From Candidatus Moraniibacteriota bacterium (lineage in GTDB: Bacteria; Patescibacteriota; Minisyncoccia; Moranbacterales; UBA1568), in NCBI GenBank assembly GCA_023261645.1, contig JAHFOO010000002.1:1-63178 (forward strand): a stretch of 63,178 nt of DNA, written 5' to 3'. Each line of letters opens with the position of its first letter. Position 1 is the stretch's first letter. Shown in pieces: positions 5,652 through 25,965 of the stretch. Below the pieces are notes generated by a model, which was given only the letters and a program-made list of their open reading frames with translations, had not been told where the DNA came from and did not search any database. The translations under genes and the position numbers were made by a program.

Positions 5652-6881
5652 ATGCGTATTCTGCTTATCAACAAGTATCATTTTCTCAAAGGAGGCGCAG
5701 AACGTGCTTATTTTGATATGGCACGGATCCTCGAATCACAGGGACATGAGGTCGCTTTTTTTTCTATGGAACATCCAAAGAACGAATCTACACAGTGGAA
5801 GAAATACTTCATACAAAATATCGAATATCACGATATACCGATCTCTTTCACAGAGAAACTTTCTCTCATAGGAAAAATTCTCTTCAATTTTGAAGCCAAA
5901 AAAAAACTCGAAAAACTTCTTGATGATTTTCATCCGGATATCGCTCATATTCATAATATTTATCATCAGCTTTCGCCATCTCTTTTTTGGCCTTTACGAA
6001 AACATGACATACCGATCGCGATGACGCTTCATGATTACAAGCTCATCTCACCGAATTACAGTCTCTTCGTGAGGGGGAAAATTTGGGAGCATTCATCCGG
6101 ATTTCGCTGTATTGTCGATCGTTGTGTACAGGATTCTGTATTGAAGAGTATCGTATGTGCTGTCGAAAAATGGCTTCACGCTCTTCTTGGCAGTTATGGA
6201 AAAGTGGATCTTTTTATTTCTCCGAGTCAATTTTTGATAGAGAAATTTCGAGAGTTCGGATTCAAACATGAAATAGTTTTGCTTCCGAATCCTCTTCCAT
6301 CACGGAGAGAAGCGACAGAAAAGGATATTCGCGAGAGAGATACCCTGCTTTTCTTTGGAAGGCTCTCTCCTGAGAAAGGCGTCGATTTGATCATCGAGGC
6401 TTTGGCATTGCTCAAGCAAGAGAAAAAATTATGGCTTGTCGGTGATGGACCGGACCGGAAAAAATTAGAAAAACTTGTTTCGGATAAAAACCTTACTGAC
6501 CGAGTCATCTTTTTTGGCGCTCTCTATGGTGACGATTTGGAAAGACTCAAACAGCGAGCAGAAGCAGTTCTTCTTCCGTCGCGTTGGTATGAGAATTTCC
6601 CGTACGTACTCATCGAAAGCTTGCAAGCTGGTTGTGTCGTGGTTGCCTCCAATAGCGGAGGCATATCCGAACGTATCCACCACGGAGAAAATGGATTTCT
6701 TTTCAAGACAGGGGATGTGGAATCTCTCGTGGAAACCATAGTATCCCTTGACACGTATCCTCTCGATACTGTGAGGGTACGTGCTATGGAAAGCGTTTCT
6801 GATCTTACGGAAAAGTTGTTTATTACGAAATTGCTCTCTTTGTATGAAGAGCTTTTGTCAAAGGAGAGAATGTCGAAATAA
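5652..6881 (+). CDS. glycosyltransferase family 4 (GT-B)
   Basis: KGGAERAY, FFGRLSPEKG, PSRWYENFPYVLIESLQAG. Confidence 0.9.
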   Translation: MRILLINKYHFLKGGAERAYFDMARILESQGHEVAFFSMEHPKNESTQWKKYFIQNIEYHDIPISFTEKLSLIGKILFNFEAKKKLEKLLDDFHPDIAHIHNIYHQLSPSLFWPLRKHDIPIAMTLHDYKLISPNYSLFVRGKIWEHSSGFRCIVDRCVQDSVLKSIVCAVEKWLHALLGSYGKVDLFISPSQFLIEKFREFGFKHEIVLLPNPLPSRREATEKDIRERDTLLFFGRLSPEKGVDLIIEALALLKQEKKLWLVGDGPDRKKLEKLVSDKNLTDRVIFFGALYGDDLERLKQRAEAVLLPSRWYENFPYVLIESLQAGCVVVASNSGGISERIHHGENGFLFKTGDVESLVETIVSLDTYPLDTVRVRAMESVSDLTEKLFITKLLSLYEELLSKERMSK

Positions 6882-9572: not shown

Positions 9573-9776
9573 AGAGCCAGTTCAAAATCTGATGTCGAGA
9601 GAAAGGTTTCTGATTTCGAGACCTGCCTACCGGCAGGCAGGTGCAAATTATGCAGAGTGCGAAGGCCTATCGTGATAAGCCGACAATCGATAAGTAATTT
9701 TCAGCCGAAATCAGAAACTTTTGGCCGACGAGTAGTATTGATTTTAACTTATACGTTCAGATTTTGAATAGGCTCT
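9573..9776. repeat. ~200-nt foldback element with an internal palindromic repeat
   Basis: 9573-9592 pairs with 9757-9776 (12-bp perfect core); 9603-9618 pairs with 9706-9721; ACCTGCCT-ACCGGC-AGGCAGGT at 9621-9642. Confidence 0.8.
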
Positions 9777-19511: not shown

Positions 19512-19610
19512 CCCTCCAGAGGCGGGCAGTCGCTCGGAAACGAAAGCCTGCCTGCTTTCGGCACAGCATACTTCCGTTTCGCTCATTTCCCTGTCTGCCG
19601 ACAGGCAGGG
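19512..19610. repeat. cluster of short palindromic (REP-like) units in the murC-murB spacer
   Basis: CCCTCCAGAGGCGGGCAG (19512-19529) and CCCTGTCT-GCCGAC-AGGCAGGG (19589-19610). Confidence 0.75.
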
Positions 19611-19631
19611 TTTGGTAATAAAAACAAAAAT

Positions 19632-21348: not shown

Positions 21349-24078
21349 ATGTCATTTTTTGAAAAAATATTCGGTTCGAATGAGCGTGAGGTGAATAGAT
21401 TCCGTCCTCTGGTAGAAGCGACGAACGCTTTCGAGCCTGCTCTCCAAACACTCTCGGACGATGCGCTCAAAAACAAGGCACAGGAATTCAAAGATCGTCT
21501 GGCGAAAGGAGAGACATTGGACGATCTTTTGCCGGAAGCTTTTGCTGTTGTACGTGAGGTCGCGAAGCGAGTGATCGGTGAACGCCATTATGATGTGCAG
21601 TTGCTCGGAGGTATCGCTCTTCATCATGGGAAAATCGCTGAAATGAAAACAGGAGAAGGAAAGACACTCACATCGACACTGCCGATTTATCTCAACGCTC
21701 TCGCCGGTAATGGCGTCCACGTCGTGACGGTCAATGATTATCTCGCCAAACGCGATTGCAATTGGATGGGGCAGGTATATGAAGCACTCGGCCTTTCGAC
21801 TGCCTGTATCGTTGGACAGAATACTTCTTATCGATATGTTTCTACTGTTGCCGATACCGATGCGGTGAGTGTCGAGATGGAAAATCTCATTCCAGTGACA
21901 CGTCGCGAAGCATACGAAGCCGATATCACCTACGGCACGAACAATGAATTCGGTTTTGATTATTTGCGTGACAATATGGTGTCTTCGCTCGAAGAGATGA
22001 CACAACGAGAACTCTTTTATGCCGTTGTCGATGAAGTAGACTCCATTCTTATCGATGAGGCTCGTACCCCGCTTATCATTTCCGCACCGGACAGTGAATC
22101 GACGAAATTGTATGAGAAATTCGCTCGGATCGTACCGCAACTGAGGGAGGCGAAGCCGAAGTCCGTTCAAAATCCTTCGAACACGTCTTTGCAGAGCGAT
22201 ATGAGCGGAGATTATATCGTGGATGAAAAGATGAAAGTTGTGACGCTGACCGATGAAGGAATGAATCGTGTCGAGAAACTTCTGGGTATGGGAAATATCT
22301 ACGCCTCCGGCAATGTGGAATATGTCCATCATCTGGAACAGTCACTGAAGGCCCAGGTCATTTTCAATCTGGATCGAGATTATGTCGTGAAAGACGGTCA
22401 GGTGATCATCGTCGATGATTTTACAGGACGTCTTCAGCCGGGACGGAGATATAGCGAGGGATTGCATCAGGCTATCGAGGCCAAAGAAGGCGTGGCGGTA
22501 CAACGTGAATCCCGTACACTGGCAACGATCACTTTTCAGAATTATTTCCGTCTGTATGACAAACTTTCCGGGATGACCGGTACAGCCATCACGTCTGCAG
22601 AAGAACTGGCGAAAGTATACAAACTCGATGTGGTGGAAATTCCGACCAACCGAGTATTGGTGCGACGCGATTTGCCGGATATCGTTTACAAAACCGAAGA
22701 AGCGAAGTATCGGGCTATCGCCGATCGAGTGAAAGAAATTCATGAAAGAGGCCAGCCAGCCCTCATCGGAACAGTCGCTATTGAAAAATCAGAATATCTG
22801 AGTACGCTTCTGACACGTGAAGGAGTTTCTCATGAGGTGCTCAATGCCAAGAATCACGAGCGTGAAGCGACTATCATCGCCAATGCTGGGCAGAAAAATT
22901 CTGTCACTATCGCAACCAATATGGCCGGTCGTGGTACGGACATCAAATTAGGGGACGGTGTGCGTGAAGTAGGCGGTCTTTTCATCATCGGCACCGAACG
23001 TCATGAAGCACGCCGTATCGACAATCAGCTTCGAGGTCGTGCAGGCCGTCAGGGCGATCCAGGTGCGTCACAATTCTATGTTTCTCTCGAAGATGAGTTG
23101 ATGCGTCGTTTCGGCGGTGAGAAGATGAAAAGTATGATGACGACACTCGGGCTTCCTGAAGACGAGCCTATTCAGAACGGACTCATTTCCAAGACAATCG
23201 AGAGCGCTCAGTCAAAAATCGAAGGCTATAACTTTGATATGCGCAAGCACGTCTTGGAATATGATGATGTGATGAACAAACAACGTGAAGTGGTCTATCG
23301 TAAACGAAAGAGTGTCCTCGAGCTCAGTTCTTTCCGTGATGAGACGCTGCACCTGCTTTCTGAGGAATTGGATCATATCATCAGTTTCCATACGGCCAGT
23401 GAGGAATCACAGTGGAATACGAGAGAAATCGTTGCAGAAGCCAATGGAATGTTTCCTGCTCTCGATGAGAAAGAAACGATGAAGCGTTTGGAAATAATCC
23501 GTGAGGATCGTTCCAAAGATGACGTGGAGAAAAAAGGTTTGATTCTCGAGTATCTCATAGGCGAAGCAAAAAAAGCATATATCGAAAAAGAAATATCCTT
23601 CAGCAAGGATATGTGGAATAGTATCCAGAAAGCTCTGTATTTGCGTTCGCTTGATACGTTGTGGATGAACCATCTCGATGCGGTGGATTATCTCCGTCAG
23701 GGTATCGGACTCCGTGGCTATGGGCAACGTGATCCGCTCATCGAATACAAACGCGAAGCCTACGATTTGTTTCTAGGGTTGATGGATGCCGTTCGCAAAA
23801 CTTTCTTGACGACTATCCTGAAGATTGTCCCGAATATGAATATTCCACAGAAAGAAACGCCACGCGAGGTACAGTTTCAGGGAGCGAGTGAAGATATCGA
23901 GCAATTCCAGGACAGTAAACAGCTGACAGCGGGTGGTGAATCACAGAATACAAATACCGAACCGCAGAAACCGATCATCAATGAGAATACGGTCAATCGT
24001 AATGATCCTTGCCCGTGTGGTTCAGGATTGAAATGGAAACGTTGTGGTATGATCAATGCATCAGAGCATAAAAAATAA
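21349..24078 (+). CDS. secA: preprotein translocase ATPase
   Basis: MKTGEGKT, VDEVDSILIDEARTPLIIS, GRAGRQGDPG, C-terminal SEC-C RNDPCPCGSG. Confidence 0.98.
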   Translation: MSFFEKIFGSNEREVNRFRPLVEATNAFEPALQTLSDDALKNKAQEFKDRLAKGETLDDLLPEAFAVVREVAKRVIGERHYDVQLLGGIALHHGKIAEMKTGEGKTLTSTLPIYLNALAGNGVHVVTVNDYLAKRDCNWMGQVYEALGLSTACIVGQNTSYRYVSTVADTDAVSVEMENLIPVTRREAYEADITYGTNNEFGFDYLRDNMVSSLEEMTQRELFYAVVDEVDSILIDEARTPLIISAPDSESTKLYEKFARIVPQLREAKPKSVQNPSNTSLQSDMSGDYIVDEKMKVVTLTDEGMNRVEKLLGMGNIYASGNVEYVHHLEQSLKAQVIFNLDRDYVVKDGQVIIVDDFTGRLQPGRRYSEGLHQAIEAKEGVAVQRESRTLATITFQNYFRLYDKLSGMTGTAITSAEELAKVYKLDVVEIPTNRVLVRRDLPDIVYKTEEAKYRAIADRVKEIHERGQPALIGTVAIEKSEYLSTLLTREGVSHEVLNAKNHEREATIIANAGQKNSVTIATNMAGRGTDIKLGDGVREVGGLFIIGTERHEARRIDNQLRGRAGRQGDPGASQFYVSLEDELMRRFGGEKMKSMMTTLGLPEDEPIQNGLISKTIESAQSKIEGYNFDMRKHVLEYDDVMNKQREVVYRKRKSVLELSSFRDETLHLLSEELDHIISFHTASEESQWNTREIVAEANGMFPALDEKETMKRLEIIREDRSKDDVEKKGLILEYLIGEAKKAYIEKEISFSKDMWNSIQKALYLRSLDTLWMNHLDAVDYLRQGIGLRGYGQRDPLIEYKREAYDLFLGLMDAVRKTFLTTILKIVPNMNIPQKETPREVQFQGASEDIEQFQDSKQLTAGGESQNTNTEPQKPIINENTVNRNDPCPCGSGLKWKRCGMINASEHKK

Positions 24079-24340
24079 GAAATTCTGCCCGTCGAGGTGA
24101 GTGTCTAGGAAGTAAAAATATTTTTGGCAATAAAAAATCCTCGACATTTTATGAAGAGGAAGGGAGAGCGAGGAGGGGTTTTGGGTTGGGGGATAAAAAC
24201 GTTGTTTTATTGTTGTGGTATCTAAAGTAGATACCGACTTCCCTCAAATGTCTCCTCCATCTCCTCGCACATAAAGTATACCACGCTTATCATTCTGTGC
24301 AAGTACACGAATTTGAGGCTTATACAAAGTAATAAATACT

Positions 24341-24643
24341 ATGAAATACAACAAACTCGTGCGAGATAGAATAATTGAAATCATTGAGAGGAAGGGAGAA
24401 AAAGCATCGTATCACACTGCCACTGACGAGGAATACCGACAGAAATTGAATGAGAAATTACGCGAAGAAGTGGATGAATTTTTAGAATCGGAAAATAAAG
24501 AAGAAATGGCAGATATTTTTGAAGTGATAACATCTCTCCTCAAACTGAGTGGCTGGAGCCTCGAGGAAATTGTTTCATTGCAAAAAGAGAAATGTGAGAA
24601 GCGTGGAGGATTCGATAAAAGGATTATTCTTGAAGAATCATAA
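24341..24643 (+). CDS. MazG/PRA-PH-like nucleoside triphosphate pyrophosphohydrolase
   Basis: YNKLVRDRI, EKLREEVDEF, EEMADIFEV, RGGFDKRI. Confidence 0.85.
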   Translation: MKYNKLVRDRIIEIIERKGEKASYHTATDEEYRQKLNEKLREEVDEFLESENKEEMADIFEVITSLLKLSGWSLEEIVSLQKEKCEKRGGFDKRIILEES

Positions 24644-24645
24644 AT

Positions 24646-25116
24646 ATGACAAAGAAAATAATGACACTGTGTTTGATCGTGAAAGATGACAGCGTTTTGC
24701 TCGGTATGAAGAAGCGCGGTTTCGGATCGGGGAGATGGAATGGTTTTGGTGGAAAATTACACGAAGGAGAATCTGTCGAAGATGCTGCCAAGCGTGAAAC
24801 GACCGAAGAATGCGGTATCGTTATTCAAACGATGGAGAGAGTCGGTATCCATGAATTCGAGTTTGAGAAAGAAAGAGGAGCAATCCTCGAAGTGCACGTT
24901 TTTCGTGTGGACGCTTTTTCAGGTGAACCTGAAGAAACAGAAGAAATGCGACCGGAGTGGTTTGGTTTTTCAGACATTCCGTACGACACGATGTGGCCCG
25001 ATGATCGATACTGGTTGCCACTTTTTCTTGCCGGGAAAAAATTCCGGACAAAATTTCTTTTTGGTGAAGGAGACAATGTTCTGGAAAAGGAAGTTTCAGA
25101 GGTGGAGAATATCTGA
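24646..25116 (+). CDS. Nudix hydrolase, 8-oxo-dGTPase (MutT/NUDT1-like)
   Basis: LLGMKKRGFGSGRWNGFGGK, Nudix box AKRETTEECG, MWPDDRYW. Confidence 0.9.
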   Translation: MTKKIMTLCLIVKDDSVLLGMKKRGFGSGRWNGFGGKLHEGESVEDAAKRETTEECGIVIQTMERVGIHEFEFEKERGAILEVHVFRVDAFSGEPEETEEMRPEWFGFSDIPYDTMWPDDRYWLPLFLAGKKFRTKFLFGEGDNVLEKEVSEVENI

Positions 25117-25121
25117 GAAGA

Positions 25122-25150
25122 TTGCTTTCTCACTATCTTTAGTCTATACT
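25122..25150 (+). promoter_or_regulatory. sigma70-type promoter upstream of the tRNA scaffold
   Basis: TTGCTT-17 nt-TATACT. Confidence 0.6.
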
Positions 25151-25174
25151 TGCTTTTGTTTGAGCTGAAATAAT

Positions 25175-25536
25175 GGGCCTGTAGTCTAGCTTGCCCCGTC
25201 ACCTATTTAGGAAAGAATGTTCTATTGAGTGAGTTTTAAGACGTAGTCGCCAAACGGCTTTTGCTAACAACCAGAGAATATTTTTGCTAGAATAGGTGAC
25301 GGGGTGAAGTAAAACAGTGCATTTTCACCCCAGCACCAAAACTTTTTTGTTTGGGCTTGTAGTATAGTGGTAATACGCTGCATTCGCATTGCAGAGACGC
25401 GAGTCCGATTCTCGCCAAGTCCACATAGGATTTTTAAAGAAGTTTTGGTAGCGGGGCACGTTGCACATTTACCTGCCGTAGGCAGGGGCGCGAGTTCCCC
25501 TCCGAAGGCGGGCAGGGATTCCGCCCAGGTCCACCA
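25175..25536 (+). ncRNA. tRNA-Ala-like scaffold with four loop insertions, enclosing a complete tRNA
   Basis: GGGCCTG (25175-81) pairs with CAGGTCC (25526-32) including G3:U70, then A-CCA; GTCT/AAAC D-stem (3/4); GTGCA/TGCAC anticodon-like stem; T arm degenerate. Confidence 0.6.
25353..25423 (+). tRNA. tRNA-Ala(CGC), CCA not encoded
   Basis: Full cloverleaf GGGCTTG/CAAGTCC with G3:U70, GTAT/ATAC, CTGCA-TTCGCAT-TGCAG, GCGAG-TCCGATT-CTCGC, discriminator A. Confidence 0.92.
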
Positions 25537-25659
25537 AAATTTATCAAAGAAGTTTTGATAACATAGCACATTGCTGATTGGTCTGGAGTCTCCTATACTG
25601 TCGACAGACAGGGATTCTTCCTGGATCCACAAAATAAGTTTAATACATATTGAATTCAG

Positions 25660-25965
25660 ATGAACAAGAATTCTCCACATATACTTAATACGTCTTCGAA
25701 TCTTCTTGGATTCACCTTCCTTGTCCTTACTTCGATGAAAGGATTTGGGATTACCCAAGGAAGTTTTATTGGGGAGATAATTTCACTGTGTGTTGCGCTT
25801 TTTGCTCTGAGTAGTTTTTTCTCTTTTTCGTCGATGCATATAAAATCAGGTGAGAGAATCATACGGTACGAAACAATAGCCTCATATATTTTTTTAAGCG
25901 GATTATTTGCAATTACGATTATCTCCGTCCTTTTGGCTTTTGATATCATTATTTTGAAGAAATAG
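25660..25965 (+). CDS. small membrane protein (~3 TM)
   Basis: 101 aa hydrophobic ORF; promoter-like TTGCTG-17-TATACT at 25571-25599. Confidence 0.75.
   Translation: MNKNSPHILNTSSNLLGFTFLVLTSMKGFGITQGSFIGEIISLCVALFALSSFFSFSSMHIKSGERIIRYETIASYIFLSGLFAITIISVLLAFDIIILKK

Follow-up and report, generated by a model that had tools for sequence, protein, structure and literature searches.

Organization of the tRNA-Ala locus

The window, a 63,178-nt stretch of contig JAHFOO010000002.1 (GCA_023261645.1) from a Candidatus Moraniibacteriota bacterium, has a bacterial gene content (SecA, MurB, L9, PyrG, and ATP synthase). At positions 25175-25536 it contains all parts of a second tRNA-Ala arranged around an intact tRNA-Ala(CGC) at 25353-25424. 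This tRNA-in-tRNA layout was proposed in an earlier, sequence-only reading, and its coordinates and letters were confirmed by re-reading the sequence; the nested layout is real at the DNA level. The following features were assigned:

25122..25150, plus strand: promoter-like site read from the sequence, TTGCTT (25122-27), a 17-nt spacer, and TATACT (25145-50)
25175..25189, plus strand: outer tRNA piece 1, acceptor 5' strand, nt 8-9, D-stem 5' strand, and the first 2 D-loop nt (GGGCCTGTAGTCTAG)
25190..25309, plus strand: D-loop hairpin insert of 120 nt without an ORF; inverted repeat I1, a hairpin in the minimum free energy (MFE) structure
25310..25323, plus strand: outer tRNA piece 2, D-loop end, D-stem 3' strand, nt 26, GTGCA (25317-21), and loop TT
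25328..25456, plus strand: cassette A, 129 bp; its arms form inverted repeat I2 (21 nt, 81% complementary)
25353..25424, plus strand: inner tRNA-Ala(CGC), called by ARAGORN and Rfam (RF00005, 66.7 bits)
25462..25467, plus strand: outer anticodon-stem 3' strand TGCAC plus A, from sequence, fold, and comparison with L003
25472..25486, plus strand: palindrome CCTGCC-GTA-GGCAGG at the variable-loop position, of a dispersed palindrome family
25487..25536, plus strand: outer T-arm region, with an 18-nt insert (25499-25516), GATT, CCGCC, CAGGTCC (25526-32), A73, and CCA (25534-36)
25546..25631, plus strand: second copy of the cassette right arm and a third, decayed 3' half; direct repeats D1, D2 (26 nt, 77%), and D10

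Two ORFs over the locus (25264-25758, minus strand; 25367-25558, plus strand) were rejected as genes, being read-through of tRNA sequence.

The inner tRNA-Ala(CGC) is the sole functional tRNA called at the locus, and its CCA is not encoded. It is carried by cassette A, which consists, in order, of a left arm at 25328-25348 (CCCCAGCACCAAAACTTTTTT), a 4-nt leader, the tRNA, an 11-nt trailer, and a right arm at 25436-25456 (AAAGAAGTTTTGGTAGCGGGG). Bounded by CCCC...GGGG ends, the cassette interrupts the resident tRNA-Ala(CGC) gene at its anticodon loop and so divides it into an upstream 5' half and a downstream 3' half. A repeat search (families D2, D5, D6, and D7) returned the outer pieces as diverged copies of the inner tRNA, and the likeness of the two is thus one of homology and not of chance. 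All inserts lie within the four loops of the outer tRNA, with none in its stems; those of the variable and T loops are short palindromes.

The D-loop insert has an inverted-repeat core, CCCCGTCACC (25194-25203) and GGTGACGGGG (25295-25304), and the 31 positions of its arms comprise 24 Watson-Crick and 5 G-T pairs with no A-C mismatch, which suggests that folding of this hairpin matters in RNA. Downstream of cassette A, the junction CACGT (25457-61) precedes the outer TGCAC and does not match the native loop CGCAT. The motif of the variable-loop palindrome, CTGCC-N2-6-GGCAG, occurs three times in the window (9623, 19595, 25473) against 0.05 expected, and is also found in many CPR loci. As for the outer T-stem, described in the sequence-only reading as poorly paired, GCGAG/CCGCC does pair at only 2 of 5 positions, but a perfect alternative exists, GGCGG (25507-11) with CCGCC (25521-25), pairing 5/5 around a 9-nt loop. 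What had been taken for a 19-nt repeat splitting the T-loop is an 18-nt segment and not a repeat. This insert (GGCGGGCAGGGATT) also occurs in L004, L019, and L021/L086, where the T-stem strands differ and are partly mismatched. The region beyond the outer CCA, at 25546-25631, contains in order a right arm (AAAGAAGTTTTGATAAC), GCACATTGCTG, a palindrome-like insert, and GGGATTCTTCCTGGATCCACA; its third 3' half (about 25567-25631) is more decayed and carries a T-loop insert resembling that of L035. This segment is the remnant of an earlier round of insertion.

The promoter-like site at 25122-25150 falls short of the threshold of a generic promoter scan, although the same position is conserved in relatives: TTGCTT/TTGACT-N17-TATACT/TAAAAT precedes the 5' end of the outermost tRNA in simple and nested loci alike. 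This site probably drives the whole tRNA complex.

Folding of the region and the coding capacity of the outer tRNA

The MFE calculated with RNAfold for 25175-25536 was -151.2 kcal/mol, compared to -106.6 +/- 6.2 for shuffled sequences (z = -7.19), and none of 100 shuffles folded as well as the native region. The MFE structure contained the outer acceptor helix of 7 bp, GGGCCUG/CAGGUCC, which includes G3:U70 (probabilities of 0.955-1.0), the 120-nt hairpin (25189-25310), the pairing GUGCA/UGCAC (25317-21/25462-66; probabilities of 0.96-0.99), a stem of CCCC/GGGG plus 14 bp around the inner tRNA, and CCUGCC/GGCAGG. All outer helices proposed earlier were reproduced in this way.

A stable fold of this kind would be expected if, once the inner tRNA had been excised, the outer halves stayed paired through the acceptor, anticodon, and 21-bp arm stems as a tRNA-like molecule charged by AlaRS for a non-ribosomal use, or if the inserts were removed and the pieces ligated into a decoding tRNA. 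Consistent with such a function are the confinement of the inserts to loops, the presence of G-U but not A-C mismatches in the D-loop hairpin, conservation of the non-tRNA parts far beyond neutral expectation, and an outer acceptor (GGGCCTG/CAGGTCC) with 7 intact base pairs, G3:U70, A73, and encoded CCA, in which 41 of 42 pairs are kept over six loci. By comparison with relatives, these acceptor features are inherited from the ancestral gene. Several lines of evidence argue against a functional outer RNA, and we consider it very improbable. The closest relatives have a plain tRNA and many loci a single half; outer T and anticodon stems are chimeric or truncated at several loci; and in L184, a strain 99.7% identical, the inner tRNA is immediately followed by a mobile element of >6.6 kb whose genes run on the opposite strand, which puts the outer 3' half, if present there, far from the 5' half. 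The covariation of outer and inner tRNAs, cited earlier for the outer helices, was inherited from functional ancestors: it is the difference between two once-functional paralogues and no sign of selection on the outer helices.

The anticodon loop provides a further argument. A 7-nt Ala (NGC) anticodon loop is absent from the outer tRNA, in which only the remnants TTTTCA and CACGT are present. The sequence-only reading had already found the spliced anticodon to be ambiguous and not that of Ala; indeed, depending on the junction, the window yields CAC, UAC, or UUC (CAC, TAC, or TTC in the DNA). Elsewhere CGA, UGA, UUA, and UUU are possible, with differences in L004, L013, and L019, such that an Ala anticodon never occurs and none is conserved. 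A spliced outer tRNA would miscode, since G3:U70 would be joined with non-Ala anticodons. ARAGORN, with and without intron mode and at a lowered threshold, and Rfam RF00005 at E up to 10 called only 25353-25424. Among versions with the inserts removed, one of five was called a tRNA by ARAGORN and the other four were not recognized; the version called, with the hand-spliced loop TTCACGT (tRNA-Val(CAC)), was rejected as evidence because its junction was chosen by hand and its anticodon is not conserved. It is unlikely, as judged from stem pairing, that the outer tRNA becomes functional after insert removal, and the earlier proposals of a spliced, multiply interrupted tRNA or of an AlaRS-charged mimic were not borne out.

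Other classes of RNA were also considered. No bulge-helix-bulge, group I intron, or ribozyme was found, and Rfam intron and ribozyme families had no match in the window or in 11 related loci. A group I intron was rejected on the grounds that the insert is 129 nt and mostly tRNA, the exons fail to restore TTCGCAT, and Rfam gives no match. An archaeal origin with bulge-helix-bulge introns was rejected in view of the bacterial gene content and of long stems with symmetric internal loops, not of the 3-4-3 form. A tmRNA, suggested by the length of about 360 nt, G3:U70, and CCA, had no ARAGORN or Rfam match, tag frame, or P2-like helix. Two weak Rfam matches were set aside: SpF41 (E = 0.06) was driven by the tRNA itself, and DUF3800-XI (E = 6.5) was far under the gathering threshold.

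The outer tRNA as the resident gene in related genomes

The identity of the outer tRNA was assessed by comparison with related loci. At the corresponding syntenic site, L003 and L036 have an intact tRNA-Ala(CGC) that agrees with outer piece 1 (25175-25189) at 15/15 positions; the local alignment score of this piece is 15 against these tRNAs and 11 against the inner tRNA. Piece 2 (25310-25323) agrees with them at 14/14. Together the 5' pieces match at 29/29 positions the tRNA-Ala(CGC) of L003, which is uninterrupted and lies behind the NUDIX gene, and over all scorable positions the outer tRNA is 50/53 (94%) identical to the L003 tRNA, compared to 75% identity with the inner tRNA. A plain tRNA lies behind the same promoter in L001-L003, L006, L007, L014, L016-18, L020, L026, L036, L043, and L075. 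These identities mark the outer tRNA as the tRNA-Ala(CGC) gene resident in a Moranbacteria-like (CPR) lineage and the inner tRNA as the newcomer. The earlier suggestion of a decayed duplicate colonized by hairpins holds as regards decay and hairpin colonization, whereas the decayed copy is the original resident gene and not a duplicate.

Nesting recurs in approximately 12 related genomes and reaches up to three levels; relatives frequently retain a single outer half or neither. A complete tRNA lies between a 5' and a 3' half in the window, L004, L013, L019, L031, and L086. Only 5' halves are present in L008, L010, L024 (three levels), and L033, and also in L015, which is cut by the contig end, and only 3' halves in L005, L034, and L035. 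All 5' fragments lie upstream and all direct 3' fragments downstream of the live tRNA, the exception being an inverted 3' fragment in L006; this strict polarity excludes a decayed tandem tRNA array. Among the relatives, outer halves are often missing, chimeric, or truncated. The acceptor stem is intact in 6/6 two-sided loci. Outer anticodon stems pair at 20/30 positions and T stems at 23/30, compared to 96% in intact tRNAs. T-stems are chimeric in the window, L019, and L086; L031 has lost 5 nt, and L086 is without the anticodon 3' strand. On this comparative evidence, the outer halves are dispensable.

The inserts themselves are unexpectedly similar between these genomes. Four-fold degenerate sites in the neighbouring NUDIX gene have reached saturation (20-47% identity), whereas cassette A is 90-93%, the D-hairpin ends 89-96%, and the T-insert region 92% identical in the same genomes, and the same inserts are found in different tRNA variants. 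This conservation of non-tRNA parts above neutral could reflect function instead of recent transfer.

Chance similarity, or mis-joining of tRNA-like repeats by metagenome assemblers, would also produce nested tRNA sequences, and the records of L021 and L011 do contain scaffolding artefacts in which duplicated tRNA sequence borders N-gaps; contigs often break at nested loci. For the window this explanation is barely credible. The repeats are short, not exceeding 35 nt, and just 77-88% identical, the identical arrangement was recovered from two independent samples (L183 at 100% and L184 at 99.7%), homologous arrangements occur in about 12 other genomes, L086 reproduces L021 without the gap, and the fold surpasses shuffled sequences as described above. 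A search of metagenome contigs for closer relatives gave none above 77%, and only L086, which matches L021 but has no gap, proved useful.

Cassettes, hairpins, and GIY-YIG elements at tRNA genes

Cassette A belongs to one of several cassette families, the inverted-repeat arms of each of which abut the anticodon loop. In L024 and L021/L086 its left part and its tRNA recur at 90-93% identity within different outer tRNA variants. The cassette A junctions, TTTTCA|CCCC...GGGG|CACGT, cannot be simply derived from the native loop TTCGCAT. The junction of L031 (TTCG|TCCC...GGGA|CAT) is a clean insertion between anticodon bases 35 and 36, and matching right junctions occur in L005/L035. In four independent cassette families (window, L004/L013, L019, and L031) both arms lie within 4-31 nt of the tRNA. 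The D-loop hairpin insert likewise recurs, at the identical D-loop site, in L010, L015, and L008. Neither 1.36 Mb of related DNA nor viral contigs yielded a copy of the cassette or hairpin outside tRNA-Ala loci, and a phage or plasmid source was rejected, as scans of viral contigs with the inner tRNA and the T-insert found nothing.

A second type of insertion was found in tRNA genes across Patescibacteria. In L009 the same tRNA gene is interrupted by an insert in which perfect inverted repeats, CCCCTCAC.../...GTGAGGGG, enclose a GIY-YIG gene (Pfam E = 9e-18). This insert represents a family of elements of approximately 290 bp with a fixed position in tRNA genes: in 7/7 homologue clusters examined, the element lies at nt 10/11 of the tRNA gene with a 7-bp direct repeat (tRNA nt 4-10). 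The family protein has about 85 aa, and ORF-less copies exist (L166, 69 bp). Element-borne tRNA alleles depart from native ones at nt 5-10, and the cassette-borne alleles begin GGGCTTG or GGGCCTATGG.

The ends of the D-loop hairpin resemble the GIY-YIG element ends (CCCCTCACCTAT), and in L008 the left end of the anticodon-loop insert (TCCCTCACTTGGAA) matches the GIY-YIG element end of that genome at 13/14 bases. The window hairpin and the cassette arms have CCCC-NN-CACC in common. The window ends (hairpin CCCCGTCACCTAT.../...GGTGACGGGG; cassette CCCCAGCACC.../...GGTAGCGGGG) are similar, not identical, to those of the family. The window inserts occupy the D-loop and anticodon loop rather than nt 10/11 and show no 7-bp direct repeat (TAGCTTG vs TGAAGTA; ATTTTCA vs CACGTTG); a tblastn search of the window found no GIY-YIG gene. 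From the similarity of their ends, we infer that the hairpin is related to the tRNA-targeting GIY-YIG elements.

Origin of the nested locus

The obtained results make it likely that an old tRNA-Ala gene was split by small mobile hairpin elements, one of which brought a working replacement tRNA, producing a mobile-element "matryoshka" locus. The whole complex would be transcribed from the promoter of the old gene (25122-25150), and RNase P, 3' trimming, and CCA addition would free the inner tRNA, perhaps with the aid of a cut in the stem between the arms, with the outer halves serving merely as leader and trailer. The comparisons suggest that the cassette is a mobile or horizontally exchanged unit; its mobility is deduced from comparisons only, as the tRNA complex of the window contains no nuclease or recombinase gene. 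Because its own replacement tRNA comes along, such a cassette could invade a live tRNA gene harmlessly. Candidates for moving it are a GIY-YIG nuclease acting in trans, another recombinase, or homologous recombination via the conserved tRNA halves.

The nested arrangement might instead have been left by larger serine or tyrosine recombinase islands that integrated, displaced tRNA parts, and were then mostly deleted, the arms being attP half-sites and the cassette itself never mobile. The arms of serine-integrase attP sites are imperfect inverted repeats of approximately 20 bp, which the cassette arms resemble. The locus is moreover an active integration hot spot, with an element carrying a large serine recombinase and a tyrosine integrase abutting the tRNA 3' end in L008, L029, L030, L033, and L184, and L082 has a classical 34-nt 3' att repeat 950 nt downstream. 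This recombinase element, however, enters after the tRNA 3' end and not in the anticodon loop, and it neighbours many different tRNA variants; since it always starts at that point, a large serine recombinase was rejected for now as the agent behind the anticodon-loop cassettes. Classical integration leads to tandem 3' repeats rather than upstream 5' plus downstream 3' halves. In the window there are two displaced 3' parts with no island or integrase between them and a displaced 5' part as well; in L184 a genuine island occupies the site. Random deletions would rarely leave both arms as close to the tRNA as they are in the four cassette families (4-31 nt), and the arm sequences resemble the ends of GIY-YIG elements. 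We therefore regard the island reading as unlikely.

Beyond the splitting of the old gene by mobile hairpins, we tentatively propose, as a possibility we would not favor at present, that the cassettes and hairpins form a single selfish family specialized on Patescibacteria tRNA genes. Autonomous members would encode the nuclease of about 85 aa and restore the tRNA 5' end with a GGG at their own terminus and the 7-bp repeat; a derived form would carry a nuclease-resistant replacement tRNA and enter the anticodon loop of a live tRNA gene free of cost, and repeated rounds would give rise to "matryoshka" tRNA genes. If correct, the proposal would describe a new strategy by which mobile elements neutralize their own insertion, namely gene replacement and not splicing, and possibly a new transposition or homing chemistry of stand-alone GIY-YIG proteins. 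The full-text literature searched contained no description of GIY-YIG elements at tRNA position 10/11 or of nested bacterial tRNA genes.

The analysis removes the attractive reading of a giant bacterial tRNA that is spliced, nested, or mimics an AlaRS substrate, for which there is no evidence. For annotation, the consequences of nested loci are leaders and trailers that are long and structured, pseudo-halves of tRNAs, spurious ORFs, and contigs that break; tRNA-based counts and island finders will misread such loci.

Comparison with known systems

Islands and prophages in tRNA genes, in an account attributed to Williams in 2002, reportedly rebuild the gene from an element-borne copy, using the anticodon loop, the T-loop, or the 3' end as sublocations. 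The nested loci share with them the tRNA target, entry at the anticodon loop or T-loop, a working tRNA kept by the element, and the accumulation of displaced fragments, and a true island with a serine recombinase plus a tyrosine integrase uses this very locus in relatives. Such islands, however, replace the 3' part only and leave direct 3' repeats kilobases apart, whereas here a whole tRNA with inverted arms of about 20 nt lies inside the old gene, both halves are displaced, and no recombinase lies between them.

The GIY-YIG elements resemble homing endonucleases (phage T4 Seg/Mob and the GIY-YIG enzyme I-TevI; compare UPF0213, PDB 1zg2 and 1ywl) in having a small gene for a putative GIY-YIG nuclease at a fixed site of a highly conserved gene. 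As in intronless homing, the same insert is found in different alleles, with chimeric flanks reminiscent of co-conversion (T-stems of the window, L019, and L086). Unlike homing systems, these elements are bounded by perfect inverted repeats and accompanied by a 7-bp direct repeat, both hallmarks of transposons. The fixed tRNA position in 7/7 clusters, together with these repeats, points to a testable role for the widespread, uncharacterized UPF0213 GIY-YIG proteins.

In common with MITEs and REP-like repeats (ERIC, Correia, REP/RAYT), the inserts lack ORFs and consist of imperfect palindromes, 15-120 nt long, which form hairpins in the transcript, and CTGCC..GGCAG is dispersed in the window. 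Unlike MITEs, the 120-nt hairpin and the tRNA cassette occur in tRNA-Ala loci only (window plus 1.36 Mb of loci) and lack a target-site duplication.

Disrupted tRNA genes with multiple introns, split and permuted genes, and mobile introns have been described in Archaea and red algae (Fujishima and Kanai, 2014, PMC4033280; Kanai, 2015, PMC4390854). There too the D-loop, anticodon loop, variable region, and position 56/57 are interrupted, long leader and trailer helices join the halves, and mobility of the inserts has been argued. Those tRNAs are functional and are processed at a bulge-helix-bulge by splicing endonuclease and ligase; in contrast, the present locus belongs to a bacterium, the motif is absent, no route back to the mature sequence exists, and another tRNA, which is intact, serves in its place.

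Many of the insertion sequences in CPR rRNA genes are ORF-less, measure <200 bp, and belong to neither the group I nor the group II introns; the 23S intervening sequences are cleaved by RNase III, and inserts encoding GIY-YIG proteins are likewise non-introns (Tsurumaki et al., 2024, J Bacteriol, PMC11270868). That study does not treat tRNA genes. The window inserts lie at loop sites of a tRNA gene, are not group I or II introns, and have ends that pair, as expected for CPR structural-RNA insertion sequences. They agree with the rRNA inserts in host group, in the use of structural-RNA loops, in their non-intron nature, and in having inverted ends that could pair in the transcript. The heavy colonization of structural-RNA genes known from CPR rRNA genes thus reaches tRNA genes, where the cost of insertion would be met differently, the element supplying a spare tRNA or rebuilding the tRNA 5' end rather than splicing itself out. 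The difference from the rRNA inserts lies in the host molecule, a tRNA that is useless in pieces: the interrupted copy is dead, and it is the insert-borne tRNA that functions.

Gene Neighborhood and tRNA Calls

The genes around the locus are ordered MurB, HPF, SecA, a MazG-like ORF, a NUDIX hydrolase, the tRNA region, a small membrane ORF, L9, CTP synthase and ATP synthase. This neighborhood is bacterial and typical of CPR/Patescibacteria, and the nearest relatives of the NUDIX protein all come from Moranbacteria-type genomes. The sole recognizable tRNA is the intact inner gene: ARAGORN and Rfam call one tRNA in the whole 63 kb, and a permissive Rfam scan of 24900-25900 gave no credible extra match. 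The pieces of the disrupted outer copy surround this gene.

Features of the locus in the window
24341-24643: upstream of NUDIX, 100-aa MazG/HisE-like ORF with a weak TIGR03188 match (E = 0.006) and no Pfam family
24646-25116: NUDIX hydrolase (Pfam E = 1.2e-15)
25122-25150: promoter, TTGCTT-N17-TATACT
25175-25536: extent of the outer copy
25190-25309: D-loop hairpin
25328-25456: cassette A, inverted arms around the inner tRNA
25353-25424: inner tRNA-Ala(CGC), 66.7 bits
25472-25486: variable-loop palindrome
25499-25516: T-loop insert
~25567-25631: third 3' half, more decayed, preceded by a second copy of the cassette right arm (repeat families D1, D2, D10)
25660-25965: downstream of the tRNA complex, 101-aa ORF, predicted membrane protein, no Pfam family

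Two mechanical ORFs that cross the complex, 25264-25758 (minus strand, 164 aa) and 25367-25558 (plus strand, 63 aa), are not genes, though gene callers could still annotate them; the translation of the former includes GLGENRTRVSAMRMQ, a peptide typical of antisense tRNA.

The Outer Copy as the Probable Resident Gene

The sequence-only reading had described a tRNA nested within a tRNA, and every sequence element that it listed is present at its coordinates. The fold that it proposed was also borne out by RNAfold on 25175-25536, with an MFE of -151.2 kcal/mol against -106.6 ± 6.2 for shuffles (z = -7.19). The MFE structure contains the 7-bp outer acceptor stem with G3:U70, the 120-nt hairpin, GUGCA/UGCAC, CCUGCC/GGCAGG and a long stem around the inner tRNA, with pair probabilities of 0.955-1.0 in both the acceptor and the anticodon stem of the outer copy. 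Repeat families D5, D6, D7 and D2 link the outer pieces to the inner tRNA, of which they are diverged copies.

In related loci (L001-L003, L006, L007, L014, L016-L018, L020, L026, L036, L043, L075) a plain tRNA-Ala(CGC) stands behind NUDIX and a conserved promoter. The stretch 25175-25189 matches the intact tRNAs of L003 and L036 at 15/15 positions and 25310-25323 at 14/14; when every scorable position is counted, identity of the outer copy is 94% with the L003 tRNA and 75% with the inner tRNA. Because its pieces match the intact tRNA of relatives better than they match the inner tRNA, the outer molecule is the original gene and the inner tRNA the newcomer. The promoter belongs to the old resident gene.

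Downstream of some plain genes, further tRNA remnants were seen: in L006 (6600-6666) a long perfect hairpin with an inverted tRNA 3' part behind it, in L002 (6593-6655) a T-arm-like remnant whose insert lies within a hairpin, and in L082 (5925-5958) a classical 34-nt 3' att repeat ~950 nt downstream of tRNA-Ala, beyond a small ORF.

Nesting Across Related Loci

We surveyed 160 related loci with a profile search for tRNA-Ala fragments and also read the sequences by eye. At least four cassette families were found, each with its own tRNA variant and its own inverted arms.

Distribution of tRNA halves and cassette families
5' half, tRNA cassette and 3' half: window, L004, L013, L019, L031, L086 (= L021)
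Only 5' halves: L008, L010, L024 (three nested levels), L033; also L015, cut at the contig end
Only 3' halves: L005 (two), L034, L035
Cassette family: window, L024, L086
Cassette family: L010, L019, L033
Cassette family: L004, L013
Cassette family: L031

Relative to the live tRNA, 5' fragments are all upstream and direct 3' fragments all downstream, the sole oddity being the inverted 3' fragment in L006. Such polarity rules out a decayed tandem tRNA array and agrees with entry into the anticodon loop and later deletions between the repeated parts. The L031 junction reads TTCG/TCCCGCACC...GGTGCGGGA/C (slashes mark the boundaries), and its right side, ...GGGA/CAT, has matches in L005 and L035. 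The insertion thus falls precisely between bases 35 and 36 of the anticodon.

At L024 (7484-7678) three levels of nested tRNA-Ala 5' halves precede one intact tRNA, and the 3' halves are all gone; the D-loop of the outermost 5' half contains a 16-nt palindrome, TCCGCCGGCTGGCGGA, that L004 also has at this site. The GenBank MAG records of L021 (9389-9488) and L011 (5403-5502) have N-gaps with duplicated tRNA sequence on both sides, and the true ungapped sequence of L021 is seen in L086.

Maintenance of the Outer Copy

In the six loci with both halves, 41/42 positions pair in the acceptor stem, but only 20/30 in the anticodon stem and 23/30 in the T stem, compared to 96% in intact genes. The outer copy of L031 is without 5 nt of the anticodon arm, that of L086 is without the 3' strand of this arm, and that of L013 combines halves from two tRNA variants; T stems are reciprocally chimeric (GCGAG/CCGCC in the window, GGCGG/CTCGC in L019 and L086). 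These broken and chimeric stems argue against function. The covariation between outer and inner tRNA, noted in the sequence-only reading, equals differences already found among intact tRNA variants and is uninformative on selection for the outer helices; differences of the outer copy between genomes are likewise pre-existing variant differences and provide no evidence of such selection. No Ala anticodon can be regained from the bases left in the loop, and the would-be anticodon varies by locus. ARAGORN accepted one of five hand-made splice versions, calling it tRNA-Val(CAC).

Strain comparison bears on the same question. L184, a strain that derives from a different sample, shares 99.7% identity with the window over 3.4 kb (window 22028-25438), and L183 is 100% identical over 3,250 nt. 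In L184 (3398-10068) an integrative element of >6.6 kb directly follows the inner tRNA, with the junction ..AAGTCCACCA/AGTCGGATTTTTGAACGCC, and carries on the opposite strand genes for a large serine recombinase, a tyrosine integrase and an Xis-like HTH protein. The window has the empty site (..AAGTCCACATAGGATTTTTAAAG), indicating a strain-level presence/absence polymorphism of the element. The outer 3' half was not found on the L184 contig and, if retained, lies >6.6 kb from the 5' half, which also counts against a functional outer tRNA. The nested arrangement is polymorphic and dispensable. The outer copy is not maintained as a tRNA, and a functional nested, spliced or mimic tRNA is unsupported and very improbable.

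Recombinase elements right after the tRNA also occur in L008 (7882 onward), L029, L030 and L033; in L008 the large serine recombinase ORF reaches antisense into the tRNA.

Inserts as Putative Mobile DNA

The adjoining NUDIX gene has reached saturation at its four-fold degenerate sites, where identity between these genomes is 20-47%.

Identity of window inserts between genomes
Cassette A including non-tRNA flanks: 90-93% (L024, L021/L086)
D-loop hairpin ends: 89-96% (L015)
T-loop insert region: 92% (L004)

Each insert has one constant site, in different tRNA variants. No second copy was found in the window, in 1.36 Mb of related loci or in viral contigs; the inserts are site-specific rather than dispersed. 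The exception is the variable-loop palindrome CTGCC-N2-6-GGCAG, which occurs three times in the window (9621-9643, 19590-19611 and 25472-25486, two of them intergenic) against 0.05 expected and looks like a REP-like dispersed palindrome. Its relatives occur in many CPR loci and in T-loops of displaced tRNA 3' halves (L035; window 25595-25613). By their conservation and placement, the inserts seem to behave like mobile DNA.

A GIY-YIG Element Family at tRNA Genes

In L009 the same tRNA gene harbors a 288-bp element (6522-6810) with perfect inverted ends CCCCTCACATGG.../...CCATGTGAGGGG, whose sole ORF encodes an 87-aa GIY-YIG protein (Pfam E = 9.3e-18; UPF0213-like, PDB 1zg2 E = 3e-9). This protein has 198 homologues at E <= 1e-10, and those with a source name are nearly all from Patescibacteria. 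Contigs fetched for seven homologue clusters place the gene directly 5' of a tRNA gene in 7/7 cases, and the target tRNAs (Ala-CGC, Ala-UGC, Val-CAC, Val-GAC, Lys-UUU) all start with GGG. Family members are ~285-300 bp long, with a single ~85-aa UPF0213-type ORF and perfect inverted ends CCCCTCAC.../...GTGAGGGG (left end form CCCCTC(A/T)), and are inserted at tRNA nt 10/11. Each is bordered by a 7-bp direct repeat matching tRNA nt 4-10, identical in 8/10 loci; this repeat and the terminal GGG of the element rebuild the tRNA 5' end. All seven clusters show this layout.

Locations of GIY-YIG elements
L009 6522-6810; L162 3023-3310; L165 2972-3268
L166 3272-3340: ORF-less hairpin copy, 69 bp
~1480-1775 in L169, L171, L172, L175-L179

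The contigs with L009-type elements, L161-L164, break ~30-70 nt past the GIY-YIG gene in 4/4 cases. L171 and L172 share the same GIY-YIG protein and downstream tRNA-Val(GAC), and in L172 (1480-1500) the upstream fragment GGGCCCCTAG adjoins the Ddl gene, the context of tRNA-Ala(UGC) copies; the comparison suggests a chromosomal rearrangement via recombination between two element copies.

The left end of the L008 anticodon-loop insert, TCCCTCACTTGGAA, matches the element end of the same genome (L165) at 13/14 bases, and the window hairpin (CCCCGTCACCTAT...) and cassette arms (CCCCAGCACC..AAAACTT) resemble the element ends of L175 and L169. Within the window, the motif CCCCNNCACC is confined to this tRNA complex. 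The window inserts have no 7-bp repeat and occupy positions other than tRNA nt 10/11; the likeness of ends is suggestive of kinship to the GIY-YIG elements, not proof of it.

Proposed Mechanism and Comparison with Known Systems

A tRNA-bearing cassette with inverted arms splits the old gene, which hairpins have colonized further. The probable explanation, and one with good support, is a mobile-element matryoshka built on the resident tRNA-Ala gene. The cassette could enter a live gene because the replacement tRNA comes along. Transcription would start from the promoter of the old gene, and RNase P together with 3' processing would remove the 178-nt leader (outer 5' half and hairpin) and the trailer; because CCA is not encoded, it would have to be added to the inner tRNA. 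The arm-to-arm stem may shield folding of the inner tRNA from the near-identical outer halves, or act as a processing site. Mismatches in the D-loop hairpin comprise five G-T and no A-C, which would fit selection for a compact transcript fold. For specialists in mobile DNA and tRNA, the chief draw is the self-complementing cassette together with the tRNA-specific GIY-YIG element family.

The locus fails the defining tests of a canonical tRNA, tmRNA, group I intron, bulge-helix-bulge intron and MITE. The full-text literature searched describes neither nested bacterial tRNA genes nor GIY-YIG elements at tRNA position 10/11, an absence that is no proof of novelty. The likeness to archaeal disrupted tRNA genes (PMC4033280, PMC4390854) is superficial. 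The locus resembles intronless homing, as well as tRNA-targeting islands that rebuild the gene, and such an island occupies this same locus in strain L184. The closest described phenomenon is that of the non-intron insertion sequences in CPR rRNA genes, a group of inserts with some GIY-YIG-encoding members (PMC11270868).
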